From Patescibacteria group bacterium (lineage in GTDB: Bacteria > Patescibacteriota > Minisyncoccia > UBA6257 > GWB1-50-10): DNA of 64,000 bases. The position numbers and the translations under genes are program-made. A model generated the notes under the pieces. The model was not told where the DNA came from and did no database searches. It saw only the letters and a program-made list of their open reading frames with translations. Positions 5,384-64,000 of the stretch are shown here, one piece after another. Each line of letters starts with the position of its first letter. The first letter of the stretch is position 1. The stretch is taken from NCBI GenBank assembly GCA_038065455.1, contig JBBTQX010000002.1, forward strand, positions 6,779-70,778, read 5' to 3'.

Positions 5384-6427
5384 TTAGGATAGGAGTGTAA
5401 ACTCGCGGCTCCGCGTTTCCAAATTGAAATAAGCGAATCCGAAAACAACGAGTATTTTGAAAATAATAAATGCCAATAGAGCGACAAACCAATATAAAAG
5501 AAAGAAAGCACTTTTTACCGTGAAGAAGAAAATAAACGAAACGGCCAACGGTAAAATCCAAGATGAACTGTTGAAAGAATTAAAATATTTCGCAACGATA
5601 TCATAAGCGAAATCGGCCGTTCCCTGAACGGGATTGAGATCCACAAACTGTTTTTTGAGGACTTCCAATAGCTGATCCGTGGCCTGATCGATGAATTTAT
5701 TCTGATCCTTCTGAGGCAAGGAACGAAAATCGGTCTCCGGACTTCCGGCGCTCACGCCCGGAATTTCCAATTTAGTCCGGCTTAATTTTTCGGCAGCTAG
5801 GCTCCGCAAAAGGTTTCGAACAGTTCCGTTCAAAGAAATACCCGGCACAATGACCCGCGCGACGGGTTCGCTTGCAGTAATGGTTCCCGACACTAGCCGC
5901 CGACCCATCGCTTCGGTGAATTTCCCCCATTCGAAATAATTGAGATAGAGAACGACCGAAAGGAATATCAAAAAGCCTGTTACGATTTTCGGCAGAAACA
6001 CTCTGGTGGTTTCAAAAAAATGGAGCTTAATGCCATTCAAAACGAAGTTCCGGCCGTGCTTCATCGCTTCGACAATGAAAACAAAAGCCACGAATGCTCC
6101 AATAAGAAGCGGAACGGACGTCTCCGGATAAACCTTATCCGGAAAAACGGCGAGCGCGGCGGCCACTTCCAAAAATGCGATAAGCGAAAGTTTTCCCAGG
6201 CCTTTTATGAAAAAAACCTGGAGAATAACCACTATCAAAAAGAAAGCGAAAGCGAGAACGGTCGGCCAGAAATAAACGTTATCCAAGCCGGAGATAAGGC
6301 GCAAAAAACCGGAGAAGGTCGCGAAGCTTCCCACGATTCCCAAAAAACCTAGAAGCAGTATCTTCCAAACACTGCGGTCTACTTCCGCTTCATGGGACTC
6401 ACTGGTTATTTGAAGGCTGGGTGTCAT
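5384..6427 (-). CDS. hypothetical multi-pass membrane protein
   Basis: Long ORF with several hydrophobic segments. Start chosen at ATG 6427; the track start at 6481 overlaps dnaK more deeply. Confidence 0.55.
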   Translation of the reverse strand: MTPSLQITSESHEAEVDRSVWKILLLGFLGIVGSFATFSGFLRLISGLDNVYFWPTVLAFAFFLIVVILQVFFIKGLGKLSLIAFLEVAAALAVFPDKVYPETSVPLLIGAFVAFVFIVEAMKHGRNFVLNGIKLHFFETTRVFLPKIVTGFLIFLSVVLYLNYFEWGKFTEAMGRRLVSGTITASEPVARVIVPGISLNGTVRNLLRSLAAEKLSRTKLEIPGVSAGSPETDFRSLPQKDQNKFIDQATDQLLEVLKKQFVDLNPVQGTADFAYDIVAKYFNSFNSSSWILPLAVSFIFFFTVKSAFFLLYWFVALLAFIIFKILVVFGFAYFNLETRSREFTLLS

Positions 6428-8282
6428 CTTTTTTATTATAGAGGGCTTCCCCGATCTTTTGAAGCGAGGTGGAAAGTTCATTCGCCGCCGCCGTTATTGC
6501 TGCGGCATCGCTTCCTTCTTGAATTTCTTTTATTTTGGCGATTTTTGCATTCACGTCTTCTTTCACGTCTGCCGGGACTTTGTCCCCCGCGTCCTTCAGG
6601 CCCTTCTCCGCCGCGTAGACAAGCGACTCCGCCTGGTTCTTCGCATCGATGAGTTCGCGCTTCTTCTGGTCTTCCGTCGCATGTTCGGCCGCTTCTTTCT
6701 TGAGCTTTTCAATTTCGTCTTTATTCAAGCTCGTCGAAGCTTCGATTTTCACCGACTGAGCCTTGTTTGTCGCTTTATCTTTCGCGGAAACGGTAAGGAT
6801 GCCGTTCGCGTCGATATCAAAAGTTACTTCGATCTGGGGAACGCCGCGCGCCGATGGCGGTATGCCATCCAAAATGAATCTGGCCAATGTCTTGTTGTCG
6901 GCCATCATCGGACGTTCTCCCTGTCCGATGTGGATTTCAACCGAGGTCTGATTGTCCGCGGCCGTCGAAAAAACTTGAGTCTTCGCGGTTGGCATTGTGG
7001 TGTTCTTCTGAATCATCGGAGTGGCGACCGCACCCATTGTCTCAATACTTAAAGTGAGAGGTGTCACATCAAGGAGTAAAACTTCACCTTCGGTTTTACG
7101 TCCTTCTTTTTTAGCTAAAAGTATCTCGCCTTGAATTCCAGCCCCAATCGCCACCACTTCATCGGGATTGATACCTTGATGGGGATCCTTGCCGAAGAGC
7201 TTCTTCACGGCCTCCTGAATGGCCGGCATTCTGGTCTGTCCACCGACCAAAATAATTTCATTTATATCTGAAAATTTCAGACCAGCGCCCTTCGGAGTCG
7301 GCGAAGTGACCGCGTCTTTCACGAGATCAATGGAGTGATTGATCATATCGCCGACCAGAGATTCGAGCTTCGCCCGCGTGAGCTTCATCACTAGATGCTT
7401 TGGCCCCGAAGAATCGGAAGTGACGTAGGGCAGATTTATTTCGCTCTCGGCCGCCGTCGAAAGCTCGTGCTTCGCGCGCTCGGCCGCTTCCCGCAAACGC
7501 TGGAGTGCCAGAGTGTCCTTCGAAATATCGATGCCTTCCTGTTTTTTATATTCGCCCACGAGATATTCTATGATAACCTTGTCGAAATCGTCTCCGCCCA
7601 AATGAGTGTCGCCGCCGGTCGCCTTCACTTCCACCGTCTGTTCTTTAGTCTCCGAATCGTAACTCATTTCAAGCACGGATACGTCGAAAGTGCCGCCGCC
7701 GAAATCGTATACGACGATCTTCTGATTCTTTTCTTTCCCGAATCCATAGGCAAAAGCCGCCGCAGTCGGCTCATTGATAATGCGGTCCACTTTCAATCCA
7801 GCGATTTCCCCCGCATTCTTGGTCGCCTGCCTTTGGCTGTCGTCGAAGTAAGCCGGCACCGTAATAACCGCCTCATCAACCGTTTCTCCGAGTTTCGCCT
7901 CCGCATCTGCTTTTATTTTCTGCAAAACCATCGCGGATATTTCTTCCGGCTTATACCACCGGTCCGCCATTTTTATCTCCACGCCGCCCGTCGCCGATTC
8001 CTTTATCTCGTACGAAAGCCACTTGCGGTCGCGCTGGACCTCTAGATCCGAAAACTTCCGCCCGATCAAGCGCTTCACCGAATAAATGGTATTCTGCGGA
8101 TTCACTACGCCCTGCCGCTTACCCAGAAGACCTGTCAGACGCTCGCCTGATTTGTTGACTGCGACAATCGAGGGAGTGGTGCGCGCTCCTTCGCTGTTCT
8201 CCAATATTTTCCCTTCGCCGCCTTCCATCACCGCAACCGCCGAATTCGTCGTCCCCAAATCTATTCCCAAAATTTTTGCCAT
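6399..8282 (-). CDS. dnaK: chaperone DnaK (Hsp70)
   Basis: GIDLGTTNS, DLGGGTFD and other Hsp70 signatures. 627 aa. Confidence 0.97.
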   Translation of the reverse strand: MAKILGIDLGTTNSAVAVMEGGEGKILENSEGARTTPSIVAVNKSGERLTGLLGKRQGVVNPQNTIYSVKRLIGRKFSDLEVQRDRKWLSYEIKESATGGVEIKMADRWYKPEEISAMVLQKIKADAEAKLGETVDEAVITVPAYFDDSQRQATKNAGEIAGLKVDRIINEPTAAAFAYGFGKEKNQKIVVYDFGGGTFDVSVLEMSYDSETKEQTVEVKATGGDTHLGGDDFDKVIIEYLVGEYKKQEGIDISKDTLALQRLREAAERAKHELSTAAESEINLPYVTSDSSGPKHLVMKLTRAKLESLVGDMINHSIDLVKDAVTSPTPKGAGLKFSDINEIILVGGQTRMPAIQEAVKKLFGKDPHQGINPDEVVAIGAGIQGEILLAKKEGRKTEGEVLLLDVTPLTLSIETMGAVATPMIQKNTTMPTAKTQVFSTAADNQTSVEIHIGQGERPMMADNKTLARFILDGIPPSARGVPQIEVTFDIDANGILTVSAKDKATNKAQSVKIEASTSLNKDEIEKLKKEAAEHATEDQKKRELIDAKNQAESLVYAAEKGLKDAGDKVPADVKEDVNAKIAKIKEIQEGSDAAAITAAANELSTSLQKIGEALYNKKDDTQPSNNQ

Positions 8283-8327
8283 ATTATTGTATTTTTGTTT
8301 ATTTTTATATTTAACCTTGACCTTTTG

Positions 8328-8390
8328 ACCGGGCAGTAGAAATTCGATCAGTTCTTCTGCCGTGTTGCAATCGAATTTTCACTGCCCGGT
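8328..8390. repeat. family-2 inverted-repeat element, short copy
   Basis: accgggcagtagaaattcgat ... atcgaattttcactgcccggt: 21-nt arms, 19/21 complementary. The grpE stop codon lies inside the right arm. Confidence 0.75.
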
Positions 8391-8864
8391 TGACAATTTC
8401 ACCCTGACGGGTTTTATGACTTTATTGTGCAACTTGTATCCTCCCGATACCTCTTCCGCTATCGTTCCCGGCGGCTCCGCGGCATTCACTTCGCCTATCG
8501 CTTCCGCCAGATTAGTATCGAAAGGGTCGCCGCGCTGAATTTTGATTCTTTCGAGGCCGTGTTTTTTCAAAATATCCTCGAGCTGACTCCTGATCAGCTC
8601 CACTCCTTTCTTCGCCGGATCGCCGTCCTTCAAGACCGAGAGGCTCAATTCGAAGCTATCCAAAGCGGGAATAAGGTCGGCTATGAGCATTTCATTCGAG
8701 AACTTGGCAAAGTTTTCCAGACGCCCCGCTTCTTCTTTTTTGTAATTAATCAGGTCGGCTTTCGCCCGCTTCCACCCGTTCAGATACTCCTCTTTTTCCC
8801 TTTCCAGTTTCGCAATCGGGTCTTCCGGAATATTATTATTATTTAAATCTTGTTCTTCGGACAT
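8379..8864 (-). CDS. grpE: nucleotide exchange factor GrpE
   Basis: 161 aa, GrpE-like coiled-coil plus beta domain. Sits between hrcA and dnaK. Confidence 0.9.
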   Translation of the reverse strand: MSEEQDLNNNNIPEDPIAKLEREKEEYLNGWKRAKADLINYKKEEAGRLENFAKFSNEMLIADLIPALDSFELSLSVLKDGDPAKKGVELIRSQLEDILKKHGLERIKIQRGDPFDTNLAEAIGEVNAAEPPGTIAEEVSGGYKLHNKVIKPVRVKLSTGQ

Positions 8865-9009
8865 ACCAGGTTAGTAGAAACTCGATTGCAAATTAACGAT
8901 TTGCTGAATCGAATCATGATTAATATATTTAATTTGACCTTTCATATTATATTTTTCCATATCCATTGTTAATTTGACGGCAAATCTAATCGAGTTTTCA
9001 CTACCTGGC
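8865..9009. repeat. family-2 inverted-repeat element, 145-nt copy (MITE-like)
   Basis: accaggttagtagaaactcgatt ... aatcgagttttcactacctggc with an AT-rich interior. Fills the whole hrcA-grpE spacer and abuts the grpE ATG. Confidence 0.75.
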
Positions 9010-9015
9010 ATGTTT

Positions 9016-9717
9016 TTAATTTTCCATTGATTTTTCGAGCGACTTTAAGAATCTTATCGGCTTCGTGTAATCCATCCGTTTCGGACCGATGGTAATCATC
9101 AGGAAATCTTCCGGCCCGCGATTGAAATAAGTGGCGAAAACGGAAATATGGGGACTCCGCGTGACCGGGCTCTGGCCCACGAAAACGCGCGGCCAATCTT
9201 TTTCCTTCTCCCACCAGGATTTATTTTCCAATATCCTTTCCGGCAATTTCTCGAAATCCCGCACCACCTCCACCAAATCTTTCTTGGCCACGGTATCGAG
9301 CTGTTCTAAAAGTTCCTCCAGTCCGCTGCCGAAAAATTCGCCTTCGTGAGGCAGGAATCCCACACCCATAAGACCGAGTTCTTCGGCCACCTCTTCCACG
9401 AAAGATTTTCTCCCGCCTCTCATAAAATCCGCGGTCAATTCTTTTAGGACATTCGAATCCTTTTCTTTTTTCGGCTCCTCAGTCAAAAATTGTTCGGCCA
9501 AGAAGCGATAGGCTTTGTCGGTCGGAATCCGCCCGCCCGAAGGATGTTTGCGGGAAAAGTAGCCGTCTTCGGCCAACTCGGAAAGCTCCAGTCGAATCAT
9601 GGCCGGCCGGATGCCAAAATCGTAGTTCTCAAAAAGATGGTCGGAGGTGACCGGCTGGCCCGTTTTCACGAAGTCCCGCACCGCCGCTTCCAATATATCT
9701 CTGCTCCTTTCCGTCAT
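9016..9717 (-). CDS. hrcA: heat-inducible transcription repressor HrcA (short form)
   Basis: N-terminal winged-helix pattern (ILEAAVRDFVKTGQPVTS). First gene of the hrcA-grpE-dnaK-dnaJ block. Confidence 0.75.
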   Translation of the reverse strand: MTERSRDILEAAVRDFVKTGQPVTSDHLFENYDFGIRPAMIRLELSELAEDGYFSRKHPSGGRIPTDKAYRFLAEQFLTEEPKKEKDSNVLKELTADFMRGGRKSFVEEVAEELGLMGVGFLPHEGEFFGSGLEELLEQLDTVAKKDLVEVVRDFEKLPERILENKSWWEKEKDWPRVFVGQSPVTRSPHISVFATYFNRGPEDFLMITIGPKRMDYTKPIRFLKSLEKSMEN

Positions 9718-9724
9718 AGTGGGA

Positions 9725-9759
9725 ATTATATATTAGCACTCAAATGTGTCAAGCGCCAA
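9725..9759 (-). promoter_or_regulatory. hrcA promoter overlapped by a CIRCE-like operator; apparently leaderless
   Basis: Minus strand reads TTGACA, 16 nt, TATAAT, 7 nt, ATG. TTAGCACTC (9733-9741), 9 nt, then aagcgccaa (6/9 to GAGTGCTAA). Confidence 0.6.
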
Positions 9760-9765
9760 TTGATT

Positions 9766-9921
9766 GGGATACCGTGCCCCTATTCCCTTCAGCACCGGGT
9801 GTCGCGGTTCTCCCGCGGAACCGCGCACCACTAAGCTCTCGGCGAAAAATCCACCCTTCTGGGTGGAGCCGAGCTTTTTCGCCTCCGAGATTTGCTTCAG
9901 GGAACACGGGCACGGTATCCC
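9766..9921. other. GC-rich, highly self-complementary 156-nt element (candidate structured RNA or IR element)
   Basis: 14-bp closing stem gggataccgtgccc / gggcacggtatccc and nested helices. No credible ORF. Confidence 0.5.
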
Positions 9922-19491: not shown

Positions 19492-19616
19492 CCCGTTAGA
19501 AACAGGATGCGCTTAACAAGCACATCCGTCTAGATTCAAACGACTTTATTATTGCAATGTTCCCCTGTATTGTTTCCATGATATTTCTGAATTTGCCCGT
19601 TTCTAACGGGATTCAT
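19489..19616 (-). mobile_element. family-1 element, ORF-less copy D (MITE-like derivative of the GIY-YIG element)
   Basis: Gene-strand reading: ATGAATCCCGTTAGAAAC ... TGTTTCTAACGGG-ATG(mrdA). Shares the termini and subterminal hairpin of copies A-C. Confidence 0.75.
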
Positions 19617-28749: not shown

Positions 28750-28758
28750 GCATCCATT

Positions 28759-28830
28759 ATACCCGGTATTACAATGTTTAGAAAAGTTGCTGGTTCATTT
28801 TTTTTTGATTAGGTTTGTAATACCGGGTAT
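28759..28830. repeat. perfect 16-bp inverted repeat in the murA / GIY-YIG divergent spacer
   Basis: atacccggtattacaa (28759-28774) and ttgtaataccgggtat (28815-28830), 40-nt T-rich loop. Confidence 0.7.
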
Positions 28831-28842
28831 ATTATTAAAGGT

Positions 28843-29130
28843 ATGTATCCCGTTAGAGACATTTCTATGTATTACAATTACGTTTTAAGAAGCAAAAAAG
28901 ATGGGAAATGGTATACTGGCTACACGAATGATCTACGGAAGCGCTTTAGCCAGCACAATAGCGATAAATTCCCTCAATGGACCAAAAATCGGGGTCCTTT
29001 TGAAATCATATACTATGAAGCCTGCAAAGATCTGCAAGATGCAAGGTCGAGGGAATATTATCTAAAAACAGGAATGGGTAAACGTTATATCAAAAATAGG
29101 CTAAAGCGCTTCCTGTCTCTAACGGGATGA
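28843..29130 (+). mobile_element. family-1 element, ORF-bearing copy A (GIY-YIG ORF bounded by 15-bp TIRs)
   Basis: ATCCCGTTAGAGACA (28847-28861) is the exact reverse complement of TGTCTCTAACGGGAT (29114-29128). The ORF spans TIR to TIR. Confidence 0.75.
28843..29130 (+). CDS. small GIY-YIG nuclease-domain protein (COG2827/UPF0213-like)
   Basis: YNYVLRS..GKWYTGYTNDLRKRFSQHN...E..YLK: GIY, YIG, Arg and Glu positions present. Alternative start at ATG 28867. Confidence 0.8.
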   Translation: MYPVRDISMYYNYVLRSKKDGKWYTGYTNDLRKRFSQHNSDKFPQWTKNRGPFEIIYYEACKDLQDARSREYYLKTGMGKRYIKNRLKRFLSLTG

Positions 29131-33296: not shown

Positions 33297-33896
33297 TTAA
33301 CGCGAATAGAATTGGCCGACCACGTTTATATCGAAAGGTAGTTGCACTCCGGTAACGGGCGGTTTTGCCACGCACTCGCCTTTCAATTCCTCCGCTTTGA
33401 GCTTAAGCCACTCAGGCGGGGTGTATTGCTTCAACCGGAGTTGAATATCATCGAAAATCTTCGCCGAGCGGGATTCGGGCCGCACAGCAATAATGTCTTT
33501 AACCCTAACATAATAGGAAGGAATTGTCACTTTTCGGCCATTCACGTGGATATGGCCGTGGGAGACGAGCTGGCGGGCGATTCTCGGAGACTTCGCGAAT
33601 CCCAAAAGAAAAACCACGTGGTCGAGGCGGCTTTCGAGCTTGGTCATAATGCCGTCTTTGTCGGAATTCCGGAACATTCTCATCATCTGATGATTATTCA
33701 GCCCGTAAAGAATTTGGATTTTCTGTTTTTCCTGGAGCTGCTTTCCGAATTCGGAAACGGAGTGGCGCGCCTGGCCGTGCTGGCCCGGGCGGTAAGGATG
33801 GCGTACCATCGCGCACTTCGGCGAATTACAGCGGTCTCCCTTGAGGAAGAGTTTGATGCCCAGCGATCTTTCTTTTTTCTCTTTGATTCTTTTCAT
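33297..33896 (-). CDS. rpsD: 30S ribosomal protein S4
   Basis: S4 N-terminal Cys cluster (CNSPKC) and S4 RNA-binding domain. Start trimmed to ATG 33896; the track extension reads into the repeat. Confidence 0.9.
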   Translation of the reverse strand: MKRIKEKKERSLGIKLFLKGDRCNSPKCAMVRHPYRPGQHGQARHSVSEFGKQLQEKQKIQILYGLNNHQMMRMFRNSDKDGIMTKLESRLDHVVFLLGFAKSPRIARQLVSHGHIHVNGRKVTIPSYYVRVKDIIAVRPESRSAKIFDDIQLRLKQYTPPEWLKLKAEELKGECVAKPPVTGVQLPFDINVVGQFYSR

Positions 33897-34024
33897 CCCG
33901 TTTAGAGACAGGATACGCTTAAGAAGCATATCCGTGAAGCATTAGCCGATTCGACTTTATTGGATTCTATTGATTGTTTGATAATCATGTTATTCATAAG
34001 TTTGATGTCTCTAACGGGATTCAT
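33894..34024 (-). mobile_element. family-1 element, ORF-less copy B
   Basis: Gene-strand reading: ATGAATCCCGTTAGAGACA ... TGTCTCTAAACGGG-ATG(rpsD). Confidence 0.75.
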
Positions 34025-34030
34025 ATTTTT

Positions 34031-34175
34031 ACCAGGCAGTGAAAATGCGATTGCAAATCGTGATTGAATCGACGATTCTCGCTATTTCCAATGACCTTTT
34101 ATTTATATTCATATGTTTTGATATTATGATGGTTTTCGATTTGAATTCAATCTAATCGCATTTCTACTGCCTGGT
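34031..34175. repeat. family-2 inverted-repeat element, 145-nt copy
   Basis: accaggcagtgaaaatgcgatt ... aatcgcatttctactgcctggt. The interior is alignable with the copy at 8865-9009. The right end overlaps the rpsK stop codon. Confidence 0.75.
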
Positions 34176-34624
34176 TAAACCCTTCTGGTCTTGGCCGGAC
34201 GCGGTCCGTTGTGCGGAATCGGCGTCACATCCTTGATGGACAGTATATTCAAGCCCTTGCCGGCGAAAGAACGGATGGCGGAATCGCGGCCGCTACCCAC
34301 GCCGCGCACGAAAATCTCCACGGTATTCGGGCCGGTCTTTTCCAATTTCTGGGCAATGGCTTCGGCGACTTTGGAAGACGCGAAAGGAGTCGCCTTCTTG
34401 GGTCCGGAAAATCCCAAAGAGCCAGCGGACATCCATGTAATCACGGCACCCTTATCGTCGGTTACGGTAATAATGGTGTTATTATAGGTGGCTTGAATAT
34501 AGATACGGCCGTTTTCCCAGTGCTGTTTGGATGTGGACGAAGATTGCTTAGCCGGCGCCTTTTCGGCCGTCCCCGCTTCCTTCACCGCTTCGTCTTTGGT
34601 TTTTATGACTTTTTTCTTTCCCAT
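34175..34624 (-). CDS. rpsK: 30S ribosomal protein S11
   Basis: 149 aa. Conserved S11 core with an N-terminal K/A-rich extension. Confidence 0.92.
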   Translation of the reverse strand: MGKKKVIKTKDEAVKEAGTAEKAPAKQSSSTSKQHWENGRIYIQATYNNTIITVTDDKGAVITWMSAGSLGFSGPKKATPFASSKVAEAIAQKLEKTGPNTVEIFVRGVGSGRDSAIRSFAGKGLNILSIKDVTPIPHNGPRPAKTRRV

Positions 34625-34686
34625 TTGCCGATTATATATGAATTTTCGAGTCTACAGACGATGAAAATTCATCCATAGAATCGAGC

Positions 34687-34785
34687 ACCCCGCCATCATC
34701 CCCGACTTGGAGCAGGATATTTTCTTTCATTATGATTTTCGTTATTTTATTGTTTTTCATATTTTTAGTGTAATGATGGCGGGGT
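34687..34785. repeat. family-3 inverted repeat in the rpsM-rpsK spacer
   Basis: accccgccatcat (34687-34699) and atgatggcggggt (34773-34785): perfect 13 bp, 73-nt AT-rich interior. Confidence 0.65.
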
Positions 34786-34795
34786 AAGTGTTCCC

Positions 34796-35298: not shown

Positions 35299-35424
35299 CC
35301 CGTTAGAGACAGGATACGCTTAAAAAGCGCATCCGTGATATGTCGCTTGGTTTGATTATTCCGACCTGTTGGTTATTCATATTGATACATTATTCAAAAT
35401 TTGTTTGTCTCTAACGGGATTCAT
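35296..35424 (-). mobile_element. family-1 element, ORF-less copy C
   Basis: Gene-strand reading: ATGAATCCCGTTAGAGACA ... TGTCTCTAACGGG-ATG(rpmJ). Confidence 0.75.
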
Positions 35425-44868: not shown

Positions 44869-44884
44869 TTTAAATTAGTCTATG

Positions 44885-44908
44885 GGTGGTATAATTGACT
44901 ATACCACC
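44885..44908. repeat. GGTGGT-arm hairpin at the DoxX stop
   Basis: ggtggtata / tataccacc, 9-bp stem with 6-nt loop, T-run on the plus side. The arms resemble the 30-nt palindromes. Confidence 0.55.
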
Positions 44909-45357
44909 TGGTTTTTTACTCTGGATACTTTGCCATCCAAGCCGAAATAATTTCCGGCGTCCATTATGAAGAATAAAATAAGTAGCGCGGCGTAGATAAC
45001 ATGGTCGTCCACGATAAATCCGTTCGCCACGACCGGAAAAGCGTTGCCGGCAAAATAATACAAAACCATTAAAAGCGCCCCGGGGATGGCGCTCCACCGC
45101 ACGAAGAGCCCCAATATAAGGGAAATGCCCAAAAGCAAAAGTGCCCATTCGTTTATGAAATTCACAACCCCGATGACACTCGGCCCGGCAAACCAGGCAT
45201 ATAATCCGGAAAATGTCTTGGCATTAGCCAGGAATCCCGCCGCGCTCCAACTCGCGTCCAATATCTTCACGAGTCCGGCATAAAAGAAAATCCAGCCCAG
45301 CGCTATTCTCCCGACAGCCAGCCAAACCTTCGTATTTTTATTTAAAATATTTTCCAT
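44899..45357 (-). CDS. DoxX-family membrane protein
   Basis: RIALGWIFFYAGLVKI pattern. Start trimmed to ATG 45357. Confidence 0.65.
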   Translation of the reverse strand: MENILNKNTKVWLAVGRIALGWIFFYAGLVKILDASWSAAGFLANAKTFSGLYAWFAGPSVIGVVNFINEWALLLLGISLILGLFVRWSAIPGALLMVLYYFAGNAFPVVANGFIVDDHVIYAALLILFFIMDAGNYFGLDGKVSRVKNQVV

Positions 45358-47142: not shown

Positions 47143-47172
47143 CTAGGTGGTGTCTTTAAAGACACCACCTAG
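47143..47172. repeat. 30-nt perfect palindrome, copy 1
   Basis: ctaggtggtgtctttaaagacaccacctag. Lies 9 nt upstream of the ATG at 47134 and overlaps its AGGA Shine-Dalgarno. Confidence 0.8.
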
Positions 47173-62829: not shown

Positions 62830-64000
62830 TTATCCCCAGGGTGGTGTCTTTAAAGACACCACCCTGTTTTTCGACGTTTTCAAAATGAAAGTTGCGATTG
62901 CCAGATAATAAGCAACAATAAAAATCCAACCCAAAGACACGCTTAGAGATAGATTGAAGTTGCCGAAGAATTCTATCAGTCCCGTCTCGACTTTCAATAG
63001 CGGCCAAACGAACCAGCCGGCGATGAGCGCGAGATAATGCGAGATGCCGGAGAGAACGGCGACGGCGAAGCCGAGCATCATCGTATACGGAATAAGCTCC
63101 AGAACCAGAACATTCGAGATGAGCGAAATAGGCGAAAAATTCCCGAAGTTCTGGATTAATATCGGAAGAACCATAAGCTGAGCGGAGCCGGTCATCAGGA
63201 GATTCTCCCGCCAGGAAAAAGTTTCTTTTTTCCCGCCGACCGGCAAATTGAAAAGCTCTTCGAGCGCCGGCTTCAAATATACGATGCCGATGAGCGCGAG
63301 GAATGAAAGTTCAAAACCGGCATCGAATACCAACACCTTGGGATTTATAAGCACCATCAAGAGTCCCGCTAAAGTTATGGCATTCCGCGGATTGAAGATG
63401 CGGCCGCTCTCGGTCGCAACGACGACGAGCGCGCCCATAATCGCCGCTCGCACGACCGATGCCTCCGCTCCGGTCATAAGCACGAAGGCGACAAGGAAAA
63501 TGAAGGCGACAATAAAAGCAGTCCTTCTTTTCAAGAATGAAGTGAGTAAAGCCATTGCCGCCACGATGACGATCGAGACGTTGTAGCCCGAAAGCGCGAC
63601 CAGGTGCGTCGTGCCGCTTATCTGCATCGCCACTTTGAACTCGGGAGAAAAATCGCTCCGCTCACCCAAGGTCAGGCCGGAAAGAAAAGCCGCTTCCTCG
63701 ACCGGCAATATCTCTCCGAAATTATCCACAGTGGAATTCTTGAGATTGAATAAAAAAGATTTGAAGGGCGCGCCCTTATCTTCCGCGATTAGCTTAACTT
63801 CGGGATATGAAACAATTCCGCTTATTCCCTCCTTCGCCAGATATTGGGCATAGCCTGCCTGCGCAGGCAGGCCTCCCAATTCCGGTTTTTTGACCGCGCC
63901 ATTTACCGAAATCAAGTCGCCATAATGGAATTCGGGATAGCGCGGAGCATTTACGAGAATTTTCACCTTGGCGCCGGAAAATTCCGTTTGGACGTAAAGA
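62830..64000 (-). CDS. comEC: ComEC/Rec2 competence-channel part (OB-like + multi-TM competence domain), 5'-partial
   Basis: Competence-domain TM pattern. The reading frame stays open upstream of GTG 63966 to the window edge. Confidence 0.8.
   Translation of the reverse strand, partial: LYVQTEFSGAKVKILVNAPRYPEFHYGDLISVNGAVKKPELGGLPAQAGYAQYLAKEGISGIVSYPEVKLIAEDKGAPFKSFLFNLKNSTVDNFGEILPVEEAAFLSGLTLGERSDFSPEFKVAMQISGTTHLVALSGYNVSIVIVAAMALLTSFLKRRTAFIVAFIFLVAFVLMTGAEASVVRAAIMGALVVVATESGRIFNPRNAITLAGLLMVLINPKVLVFDAGFELSFLALIGIVYLKPALEELFNLPVGGKKETFSWRENLLMTGSAQLMVLPILIQNFGNFSPISLISNVLVLELIPYTMMLGFAVAVLSGISHYLALIAGWFVWPLLKVETGLIEFFGNFNLSLSVSLGWIFIVAYYLAIATFILKTSKNRVVSLKTPPWG
62837..62866. repeat. 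30-nt perfect palindrome, copy 2
   Basis: cagggtggtgtctttaaagacaccaccctg. The central 24 nt are identical to copy 1. Lies in the last codons of the upstream comEC ORF. Confidence 0.8.

Follow-up and report, generated by a model that had tools for sequence, protein, structure and literature searches.

Repeat elements in the hrcA-grpE-dnaK and rpsK-rpsD regions

The window (the whole 64,000-nucleotide stretch of DNA under analysis) carries three short inverted-repeat elements, E1, E2 and E3, associated with the genes grpE and rpsK. Their cores have been delimited as CCRGG...CCYGG and are listed, together with the accompanying features, in Table 1. All three copies claimed in the initial annotation are present, with limits within 1 nt of those it proposed. 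The arms of these elements (61-143 nt) measure ~21 nt and are 88-90% complementary. The arm pattern occurs nine times in the window against 1.84 expected matches, and nine or more were obtained in 0 of 100 shuffles. The predicted RNA folds of the three elements range from -30 to -45 kcal/mol (z = -4.8 to -7.5 against shuffled sequence) and the ssDNA folds from -20 to -26 kcal/mol (z = -4.7 to -7.0). An Rfam search of the whole window at gathering thresholds returned a tRNA-Leu as the sole match, so that no known RNA family covers the elements.

Table 1. Inverted-repeat elements of both families and associated features in the window
Feature	Position	Strand	Description
E1, core	8329-8389	-	61 nt, non-autonomous; gene strand CCGGGCAGTGAAAATTCGAT...ATCGAATTTCTACTGCCCGG; within the last grpE codons
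E1 target-site duplication, copy 1	8325..8328	.	TTGA on + strand, TCAA on gene strand
E1 target-site duplication, copy 2	8390..8393	.	TTGA on + strand
E2, core	8866-9008	-	143 nt, non-autonomous; between hrcA stop (9016-9018) and grpE ATG
E2 duplicated start codon, upstream copy	9009..9011	-	ATG on gene strand, 4 nt past hrcA stop
E2 downstream TATG	8862..8865	-	regenerated at E2 3' end; working grpE start codon
46-codon open frame	8871..9011	-	from upstream ATG through E2 to TAA
E3, core	34032-34174	+	143 nt, non-autonomous; inserted at rpsK stop codon
E3 target-site duplication, copy 1	34029..34031	.	TTA on + strand, TAA on gene strand
E3 target-site duplication, copy 2	34175..34177	.	doubles as rpsK stop codon TAA
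Sister family, full-length copy	28843..29130	+	arms ATCCCGTTAGAGACA; single 95-aa GIY-YIG ORF
Sister family, non-autonomous copy	33897..34021	-	between ATG 34022-34024 and true rpsD ATG 33894-33896; adjoins E3
Sister family, non-autonomous copy	19492..19610	-	gene start; ATGAAT at both flanks
Sister family, non-autonomous copy	35299..35418	-	gene start; ATGAA at both flanks

The element ends had been placed in the initial annotation at the grpE stop, the grpE start and the rpsK stop. For E2 and E3 this holds, the ATG and the TAA being copies of the target duplication, whereas the grpE stop lies inside an arm of E1: the 5' arm provides a new stop codon (TGA, 8379-8381) and the last grpE codons are changed from ..LSKGQ.. 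to ..LSTGQ*. The asymmetry of the stem (GTAGAAA/TTTCAC, giving a mismatch pair), ascribed to every copy, is likewise real and is retained in 55 of the 56 paired elements of the family described below; relative to gene direction, however, E3, whose GTGAAAA arm precedes the other arm on the + strand, is flipped with respect to E1 and E2. The interiors of E2 and E3 are alignable as had been stated, with 64 of 97 positions aligned when both are read on the + strand (z = 3.2) and no alignment in the opposite orientation. In E2 an additional base in the 3' arm makes a TAA stop, and the 46-codon frame running through the element has its first stop at nt 138, with a 6-nt gap to the grpE ATG. Translational coupling through this frame is possible. 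In the hrcA-grpE-dnaK and rpsK-rpsD transcripts, E1, E2 and E3 probably ride along as near-neutral passengers.

What had been counted as the first inverted-repeat family of the window is a sister of the E1/E2/E3 family. Its full-length copy is one ORF throughout, which leads from the duplicated ATG, directly adjoining the 5' arm, through the 3' arm to a TGA stop; this stop shares bases with the start codon (ATG) of the following gene at 29127. The absence of a coding partner from the window, as first reported, therefore applies to the arms of E1, E2 and E3, for which no full-length copy was found within the 64 kb, and not to the sister family. The nuclease of the latter is represented by 3334 protein clusters with the N-terminus MNPVRD and the C-terminus RFLSLTG*, i.e. 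the same design with other arms. Each of the two arm families has its own GIY-YIG clade, the clades being about 40% identical to each other. Gene starts are easily mis-called in such genomes; in the first-pass ORF list of the window, for example, rpsD is 11 codons too long.

Presence and absence in related strains

Related genomes were compared at the three insertion sites. E1 is identical in L118 and differs slightly in L116 (58-59 of 61 positions the same, about 95-97%). It is missing from L112 and L115, where grpE ends in ..LSKGQDNK and a single TCAA or TCGA is found. E2 is missing from L112, L115 and also L118, whose GrpE is 98% identical to that of the window; the site there reads ..aaaacATGgaagaacaa / ..TAAaaacATGgaagaa, and the window has 150 nt extra, in the form aaacATG[143 nt]TATGtcc. 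L116 carries E2 at the same site with 95% identity, and the 46-codon frame stays open in it despite four non-synonymous changes. In L209 the same hrcA-grpE junction is occupied by a full-length, nuclease-bearing copy.

E3 is identical on five Hainich contigs and missing from L194, although rpsK (449/450 nt) and rpsD (599/601 nt) match the window. The site in L194 reads TAA-CCAGGCAA-TAA, which corresponds to both duplication copies and 8 nt between them, the first seven matching the end of E3; judged from the sequence, this is an apparent excision footprint. The sister copy adjoining E3 is missing from L194 as well, and its site is clean. Since elements are absent where the flanking genes are 98-99.8% identical, they are recent insertions and not ancestral regulatory hairpins. 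The comparison with relatives called for by the initial annotation thus speaks for mobile elements, the three loci not being conserved even in near-identical strains.

Neither plain transposition nor plain recombination explains why E1 and E2 are so alike in the window and in L116. Identity is 94-98% in the two elements and 56-84% in the flanks, and because the step falls exactly at the element borders, co-transfer of long flanks is ruled out. Vertical inheritance under constraint is contradicted by the absence of the elements from closer relatives and by the drift seen in the orthologous pair L053/L064, in which the element interior is down to 61% identity and the flanks are at 76-79%. The window itself is a recombination mosaic of co-occurring strains, with a dnaK 98% identical to that of L112 and an hrcA-grpE region close to L118. 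An additional TCC codon came in together with E2 and is lacking in L118.

The element family across genomes

A scan of species-representative genomes for the arms revealed at least 111 loci, and most of the paired matches listed belong to Paceibacteria. From the listed matches 56 paired elements were extracted, which fall into size classes of about 60-84 nt, 125-146 nt and 313-327 nt. Additional copies, which the initial annotation had advised looking for, therefore exist in many genomes, where the same arms precede dozens of unrelated genes. Within one genome the interiors of copies at different loci are 90-97% identical at their most similar, and tandem insertions at one ATG occur. At the arm positions left free in the search pattern, Watson-Crick pairing was found in 53/56, 54/56, 56/56 and 56/56 elements, which indicates covariation. 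Carriage by phages found no support: 2.9 million viral contigs were scanned for the arms and gave seven matches, all of them single, unpaired and imperfect.

The paired elements show a strong preference for start codons. An ATG is present at both flanks in 37 of 56 against 2.7% expected (p = 3e-44), and among these ATG-flanked elements one orientation prevails by 33:4 (p = 1e-6). Insertion is most frequent at the TATG of a host start codon, in one orientation, and target duplications range from 3 to 5 bp; the other 19 paired elements lie away from ATG. In most cases the downstream ATG starts a long ORF, usually a real host gene. The frame opened by the upstream ATG has its first stop, in gene-less copies, between 6 and 133 nt before the host ATG, and usually it stops early, 20-130 nt short of it. 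Because of these early stops simple stop-start coupling is not the general way in which the host gene stays expressed; the corresponding geometry fits E2, a Harrisonbacteria subfamily and the full-length copies.

The nuclease of the full-length copies

The full-length element measures 313-327 bp and consists of two ~21-bp inverted arms (CCRGGYAGTGAAAAYTCGAT ... ATCGRTTTTCTACTRCCYGG) around one ORF. This ORF encodes a single-domain GIY-YIG nuclease of 88-100 aa. The 5' arm, when read from the flanking ATG, supplies its first codons (MPGSENS). The longer, enzyme-encoding copy that was to be sought has thus been found between the same arms. The GIY-YIG domain (PF01541) was recognised in four copies of 313-327 nt (E = 1e-15 to 1e-18). 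Three further full-length copies were fetched independently, one of them at the hrcA-grpE junction itself, and all of these have the structure ATG|CCAGG...CCTGG|(T/A)ATG preceding a host gene. Among the matches listed for the at least 111 loci, the only ORFs enclosed by arm pairs are GIY-YIG genes, and a tyrosine (HUH) transposase flanked by the repeats was not found.

A protein search gave 914 clusters, and about 100 of the best 120 start with MPGSENS. The catalytic residues Y, Y, G, R, H, N and E are invariant, and PF01541 spans the domain. By sequence and fold the closest proteins are UPF0213 and Slx1, the fold being nearer to these than to I-TevI; the group I intron endonuclease model TIGR01453 (NCBIfam) scored 21 bits against a cut-off of 56. 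The enzyme also shows 40-43% identity, with an hhalign probability of 97-98%, to Azospirillum and Rhizobium proteins flanked by NTS-like hairpin repeats. With regard to a possible place in the cd10448 clade, the enzyme matches UPF0213/YazA about as well as these SRM-flanked alphaproteobacterial proteins. The Ssn nucleases are single-domain GIY-YIG proteins of about 94 aa whose genes lie between hairpin repeats termed NTS/SRM (Chenal et al. 2025, Nat Commun, PMC11893778).

That the gene-less copies arose from the nuclease gene by internal deletion was rejected, since local alignment of their interiors to five full-length copies detected no similarity (best z 2.3, most below 1). As far as the sequences tell, arms only are common to the gene-less and the nuclease-bearing copies.

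Interpretation and alternative explanations

Insertion, target duplication, presence and absence between near-identical strains, spread to many loci of a genome, reappearance of almost identical copies at one site in divergent genomes and the link between arms and nuclease are all shown by comparison of the available genomes. Inverted repeats, duplications of 3-5 bp, empty sites, many copies and longer nuclease-bearing copies also bear out the earlier suggestion of MITE- or REP-like elements with a partner elsewhere. The best joint explanation, which we regard as probable, is that E1, E2 and E3 belong, as non-autonomous and MITE-like members, to a mobile family of groundwater Patescibacteria (class Paceibacteria/Minisyncoccia).

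By analogy, the mobilising enzyme would be the GIY-YIG nuclease. It may recognise the hairpin that the arms form in single-stranded DNA and cut a few nucleotides outside, as has been shown for Ssn; such cutting would excise or insert full-length copies and, in trans, gene-less ones. The conserved G-T/A-C mismatch pair would make the hairpins of the two strands distinguishable and so set the orientation. We know of no GIY-YIG enzyme that joins DNA strands, which speaks against this reading. At a start codon the host ATG and its translation signals would open the frame of the element, MPGSENS.. being the translated 5' arm, and the second ATG recreated at the 3' end of the element would serve the host gene. 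Host expression might be kept through re-initiation once the short frame upstream has been translated, or by the hairpin bringing the upstream signals beside the regenerated ATG. Tentatively, and as a plausible rather than a probable proposal, an Ssn-like GIY-YIG nuclease of ~90 aa could be the sole protein needed to move the ~320-bp element. It would have evolved for start codons, where the host start expresses the nuclease and the regenerated ATG keeps the host gene, and its variants would re-occupy the same site in distant genomes in a homing-like manner. If this is true, no smaller autonomous DNA transposon is known to us, and no earlier prokaryotic example that a GIY-YIG enzyme moves.

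The elements could instead be conserved cis-acting RNA structures of heat-shock and ribosomal operons, such as RNase III sites, mRNA stabilisers, thermosensors or HrcA operators, with their repetition reflecting shared regulation. Such a role would suit their position at cistron borders within co-transcribed operons, their strong RNA folding and the covariation of the arms, but as their primary nature it is largely refuted and we hold it to be highly improbable. It conflicts with the empty sites between nearly identical flanking genes, the target duplications on both sides, the same arms ahead of dozens of unrelated genes in many genomes, the lower identity of the L053/L064 interior than of its flanks and the lack of an Rfam match. 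The sole CIRCE-like HrcA operator of the window (TTAGCACTC-N9-GAGTGCTAA), a weak one, lies elsewhere, at 9733-9759 upstream of hrcA. It is also unlikely that ordinary MITEs are moved by an unrelated transposase encoded elsewhere, with the GIY-YIG ORF as a passenger, addiction or homing module. Inverted repeats with duplications of 3-5 bp are what DDE transposition classically leaves behind, no strand-transfer activity of GIY-YIG nucleases is known to us, and the gene-less interiors are unrelated to the nuclease gene. Against this, the arm pairs listed (at least 111 loci) enclose just a short interior or a GIY-YIG ORF, each of the two arm families is paired with its own GIY-YIG clade, hundreds to thousands of protein clusters contain nucleases whose two ends are the translated arms, and homologous nucleases bind and cut beside hairpin repeats flanking their own genes (PMC11893778).

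A domesticated Ssn-like system, to which we attach little probability, would make the hairpins chromosomal sites at which a single-strand-specific nuclease acts to limit or shape the uptake and recombination of transforming DNA, and their present spread would occur mainly by homologous recombination from strain to strain and not by transposition. The homology of the nuclease to SRM-flanked Ssn-type proteins, the function of Ssn in Neisseria (PMC11893778), the mosaic structure of the window and the TCC codon that arrived with E2 are in favour of it. Duplications of unrelated target sequence at many unrelated loci, tandem insertions at one ATG, copies 90-97% identical between loci of one genome and the apparent footprint in L194 nevertheless indicate real insertion and excision events. 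The domesticated system and a mobile element are compatible views and not exclusive ones.

Comparison with known systems

Like classical MITEs, e.g. the Correia elements of Neisseria, the family comprises short non-coding copies with terminal inverted repeats and short target duplications, present in many copies at gene borders within transcripts, where they form stable mRNA hairpins. In contrast to MITEs, the arms are shared not with a DDE transposase but with a GIY-YIG nuclease of ~90 aa, carried by an element of about 320 bp, and the preference for start codons and for one orientation is strong. REP/REPIN sequences with their RAYT are similar in that hairpin repeats are dispersed in trans by one small enzyme whose gene is flanked by the repeat. 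The RAYT, however, belongs to the tyrosine (HUH) transposases of IS200/IS605 type, of which none was found here among the arm pairs listed, and REPs, as far as we know, leave no target duplication.

With free-standing GIY-YIG homing genes (T4 seg, I-TevI type) the elements share a selfish GIY-YIG gene between host genes, a patchy distribution, the filling of one site in genomes that have diverged (in the window, L116 and L209 this is the grpE start) and a very short donor tract brought in with the element. GIY-YIG homing enzymes possess a separate DNA-binding domain and reach about 245 aa in all, whereas the present protein has a single domain with the Slx1- and UPF0213-like fold noted above. 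We know of no inverted repeats, target duplications or gene-less derivatives of such homing genes. The full-text literature searched contained no account of GIY-YIG mini-elements that are bounded by inverted repeats and sit at start codons; the nearest report besides the Ssn paper concerns GIY-YIG ORFs in non-intron insertions of CPR rRNA genes (PMC11270868).

The greatest likeness is to Ssn itself. Both systems have a single-domain nuclease of similar size, and in both the repeat is also scattered through the genome as gene-less, mostly intergenic hairpins; directional recognition is a feature of Ssn. The Ssn gene has its own hairpin repeat on either side, and the present gene lies between its cognate arms, which pair with each other and do not each form a separate hairpin. 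The tyrosines mutated in SsnA, Y6 and Y17, are at the same positions here, and SsnA E64 corresponds to E63. The differences relate to the repeats, the protein and the hosts: (i) the flanks are halves of one ~21 bp inverted repeat and not two self-contained hairpins of 20-50 nt; (ii) the arms are unrelated to the NTS/SRM consensus (ATTCCC-N8-GGGAAT core), which has no match in the window with up to one mismatch; (iii) the arms belong to the ORF; (iv) the C-terminal third of the protein differs; (v) the hosts are Patescibacteria, which are absent from the main text of PMC11893778. Exact insertion at start codons in one orientation, with the ORF of the element fused to the host ATG, is furthermore an unusual way of life in a compact genome, and paired nuclease and arm variants could widen the set of site-specific single-strand DNA nucleases. 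Small Ssn nucleases cut next to dispersed hairpin repeats, and the mobility of the nuclease-plus-repeats unit has been put forward as a hypothesis only (PMC11893778). Whether this unit is or was mobile is a question on which the present family bears directly, as its target duplications, empty sites, apparent footprint, tandem insertions and bursts of copies within a genome constitute comparative evidence of movement in nature.

Gene-less inverted-repeat elements in the heat-shock and ribosomal operons

Three gene-less inverted-repeat elements with arms of about 21 nt, termed here E1, E2 and E3, are located in a heat-shock and a ribosomal operon, and all genes around them lie on the minus strand. 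Their cores coincide with the three copies reported in the initial annotation. These elements exceed chance expectation: the arm pattern has nine matches in the window against 1.84 expected from shuffles, and each element folds far better than its own shuffles, both as RNA (z = -4.8 to -7.5) and as ssDNA (z = -4.7 to -7.0). The interiors of E2 and E3 can be aligned in a single orientation only. The window also carries a sister family (family 1) with other arms, and several further repeats, of which the 30-nt palindromes may be bidirectional terminators or another hairpin repeat family.

Elements, genes and other repeats in the window
Feature	Position	Strand	Remarks
dnaK	6399-8282	-	heat-shock operon
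E1 core	8329-8389
grpE	8379-8864	-	heat-shock operon
E2 core	8866-9008
hrcA	9016-9717	-	heat-shock operon
CIRCE-like operator	9733-9759
Inverted repeat (GGGATACCGTGCCCC...)	9766-9921		29-nt arms, 86% complementary, 98 nt apart; upstream of hrcA, beside the CIRCE-like operator; region highly diverged in contig L118
Sister-family copy, arms ATCCCGTTAGAGACA	19492-19610		gene-less
Perfect 17-nt inverted repeat (TATACCCGGTATTACAA)	28758-28831		arms 40 nt apart; just upstream of the GIY-YIG element
Sister-family copy, arms ATCCCGTTAGAGACA	28849-29126		nuclease-bearing (ORF 28843-29130, +)
rpsD	33297-33896	-	ribosomal operon; rpoA and rplQ next
Sister-family copy, arms ATCCCGTTAGAGACA	33898-34018		gene-less
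E3 core	34032-34174
rpsK	34175-34624	-	ribosomal operon
Inverted repeat (ACCCCGCCATCAT / ATGATGGCGGGGT)	34625-34795		position is that of the 171-nt rpsM-rpsK spacer holding the repeat; AT-rich interior; present also in contig L194, which is without E3
Sister-family copy, arms ATCCCGTTAGAGACA	35299-35418		gene-less
Weaker copy of the 30-nt palindrome	44875-44916
Perfect 30-nt palindrome (C[TA]GGGTGGTGTCTTT-AAAGACACCACC..)	47143-47172		followed by T run
Perfect 30-nt palindrome (C[TA]GGGTGGTGTCTTT-AAAGACACCACC..)	62837-62866		followed by T run

Duplicated flanks and element-free alleles

On the gene strand, the E2 locus reads TAA (hrcA stop)-AAAC-ATG-[CCAGG...CCTGG]-TATG-TCC-GAA. The corresponding site of L118, a contig from the same aquifer with a 98% identical GrpE, is TAA-AAAC-ATG-GAA, without the 150 nt; in further contigs (L112 to L115), with the gene order of the window and a dnaK 98% identical in nucleotide sequence, the hrcA-grpE gap is 4 nt. 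E1 is placed within the end of grpE (..TTG-TCAA-[element]-TCAA-AAGGTCAAGGTTAA), so that GrpE terminates in ..LSTGQ* at a TGA of the E1 arm; relatives without E1 have a single TCAA or TCGA and the terminus ..LSKGQDNK*. E3 is flanked by two TAA triplets, the first being the rpsK stop codon, and together with the neighbouring element it has the same sequence in five contigs from the Hainich aquifer. In L194, rpsK (449/450 nt) and rpsD (599/601 nt) are nearly identical to those of the window, and the gap between them is just 16 nt. This E3-free site (L194 2950-2966), TAA-CCAGGCAA-TAA-AAAAT, retains both TAA copies and 8 nt, the first seven of which match the 5' end of E3 (chance about 6e-5), and looks like an excision footprint.

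The sister copy that adjoins E3 is situated at the true rpsD start and is cleanly missing from L194; elements are lost with or without an apparent footprint. All three gene-less sister copies are found at gene starts, with an ATGAA(T) repeat on each side. The mechanical ORF list lets rpsD begin at 33929, within the family-1 element. Translation from the true start codon (ATG, 33894-33896) yields 199 aa, the length found in L194; the public gene calls of the Hainich contigs contain the same error (210 aa).

The alleles compared identify E1, E2 and E3 as insertions with target duplication, and the finding is a real one. The initial annotation had proposed MITEs or REP-like structured spacers; its MITE reading is borne out by the duplicated flanks, the element-free alleles of close strains and the longer copies bearing a nuclease. 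Conservation of the loci in distant relatives, named there as an argument against mobility, does not hold, because E1-E3 are absent even from near-identical strains.

Recurrence at the same sites

E1 and E2 occur at the same two sites in L116, a distant relative (GrpE 75% identical, flanking genes 70-79% in nucleotide sequence, third codon positions 45%), where they are 95% identical in global alignment (E1 59/61 by direct comparison). Precisely at the element borders, identity between the window and L116 jumps from 56-84% outside to 94-98% inside. This likeness does not reflect a general constraint, since in L053/L064, an orthologous pair with flanks of 76-79% identity, drift has brought the interior down to 61%. 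Together with the full-length copy at the grpE start of contig L209, it points to repeated, recent and site-preferring acquisition.

The window dnaK is 98% identical to that of L112 and clearly more diverged from L118; the hrcA-grpE(-E1) region shows few differences from L118 and is 88-90% identical to L112. By these comparisons, positions 6399-9717 represent a recombination mosaic of strains co-occurring in the Hainich aquifer. An extra TCC codon, not present in L118, arrived with E2, which suggests that E2 may have been copied from a donor allele along with a very short stretch of co-converted sequence.

Family members and their nuclease

A scan with the pattern CCRGGYAGTRRAAANNCGATT, covering one genome per species, revealed at least 111 loci. 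Among the matches listed, single ones in Bacillus, Streptomyces and the like are at the expected chance level, and paired ones belong to Harrison-, Lipton-, Yanofsky-, Jorgensen- and Colwellbacteria, Paceibacter, other Patescibacteria bins and a few bins labelled otherwise. The 56 paired elements extracted from these fall into size classes of 60-84 nt (n=17), 125-146 nt (n=33), 162-165 nt (n=2) and 313-327 nt (n=4). The longest class codes for a GIY-YIG protein (PF01541, E = 1e-15 to 1e-18); both the copies beyond the window and the longer nuclease copy that the initial annotation proposed to look for do exist. Copies at separate loci of the same genome reach 97% identity, which indicates that gene-less copies multiply within genomes.

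A protein search with one family nuclease gave 914 clusters. The N-terminus MPGSENS[TI], which is ATG plus the translation of the 5' arm, is found in about 100 of the best 120, a count somewhat inflated because the query itself carried this N-terminal extension. The catalytic residues, Tyr, Tyr, Gly, Arg, His, Asn and Glu, do not vary. Three further full-length copies, fetched independently (L208, L209, L210), share one layout: stop, 0-12 nt, ATG, CCAGGTAGTGAAA..., ORF, stop, ...CTACTACCTGG, (T/A)ATG and host gene. That of L209 (701-994; GCA_028690995.1) lies exactly between hrcA and grpE, which is the E2 site. A tandem of a gene-less and a full-length copy occupies one ATG in L020 (4100-4640). 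In L017 (3400-3830) a GIY-YIG gene without recognisable arms follows a 75-nt copy by 10 nt, counted from the last base of the element, right-hand 4-nt TSD copy TGGA included.

The nuclease-bearing sister element is a single 95-aa GIY-YIG ORF running from an ATG beside the arm through both arms to a TGA, which overlaps the ATG of a downstream 414-aa gene. Its relatives (3334 protein clusters) mostly start with MNPVRD and end with RFLSLTG*, the translations of the two sister-family arms. The two arm families each have their own nuclease clade (about 40% identical to each other), which argues that arms and nuclease belong together.

Target, orientation and stem

Elements lie between two ATGs in 37 of 56 cases, versus 2.7% expected (p = 3e-44), and in 33 of these 37 the GTGAAAA arm follows the upstream ATG (p = 1e-6); the family is biased to start codons and to one orientation. 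The downstream ATG starts a long ORF in most cases, the exception being tandems, in which a further element comes next. Other copies duplicate unrelated sequences (CGCA, TCCA, CAAAG, TGTTA, AAAA, CGTA, TCAA, TTA), and the ATG therefore belongs to the target sequence and not to the element.

At the four arm positions left free in the search pattern, Watson-Crick complementarity is kept in 53, 54, 56 and 56 of 56 elements, both alleles being common at each, and 55/56 retain the neighbouring G-T and A-C mismatches. The stem structure is therefore selected, and its asymmetry likewise. The mismatches make the top- and bottom-strand hairpins differ, which could be the basis of the orientation preference. 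In 14/56 elements the 3' arm has an extra base, which produces a TAA or TGA in the reading frame of the host ATG.

Proposed mechanism and comparison with known systems

By analogy with Ssn, a small GIY-YIG single-strand nuclease system, the nuclease would act on the element hairpin in ssDNA and would mobilise gene-less copies in trans. In full-length copies its expression would be driven by the host ATG, and with translation ending 0-45 nt ahead of the regenerated ATG, re-initiation would be possible. In gene-less copies the frame from the upstream ATG mostly stops early; the host gene may be reached by re-initiation or by scanning after stem opening, or alternatively the stem may place the upstream signals beside the second ATG.

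The nearest solved structures by sequence are UPF0213 proteins and Slx1. The AlphaFold model (pLDDT 83), in which the arm-encoded N-terminus is disordered, is likewise closer to Slx1 and UPF0213 than to UvrC and I-TevI. Ssn enzymes, 94-aa single-domain GIY-YIG proteins, are encoded between hairpin repeats of which hundreds of copies exist; binding is confined to the ssDNA form of the hairpin, and cleavage to one strand, a few nucleotides upstream of it (PMC11893778). The authors of that study remarked on the IS-like layout and put mobility forward as a hypothesis (PMC11893778). A tblastn search of plasmids revealed Azospirillum and Rhizobium homologues between inverted NTS-like repeats; the Patescibacteria profile matches these proteins with 40-43% identity (probability 97-98%). 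The arms of the Patescibacteria elements do not match the NTS consensus. Insertions in CPR rRNA genes that are not introns contain GIY-YIG ORFs (PMC11270868) and may represent elements of this type. No description of Ssn-like GIY-YIG mini-elements on start codons was found in the literature searched. The family combines features of Ssn/hairpin-repeat systems with those of MITEs, with a substantial probability of being a new class of transposon.
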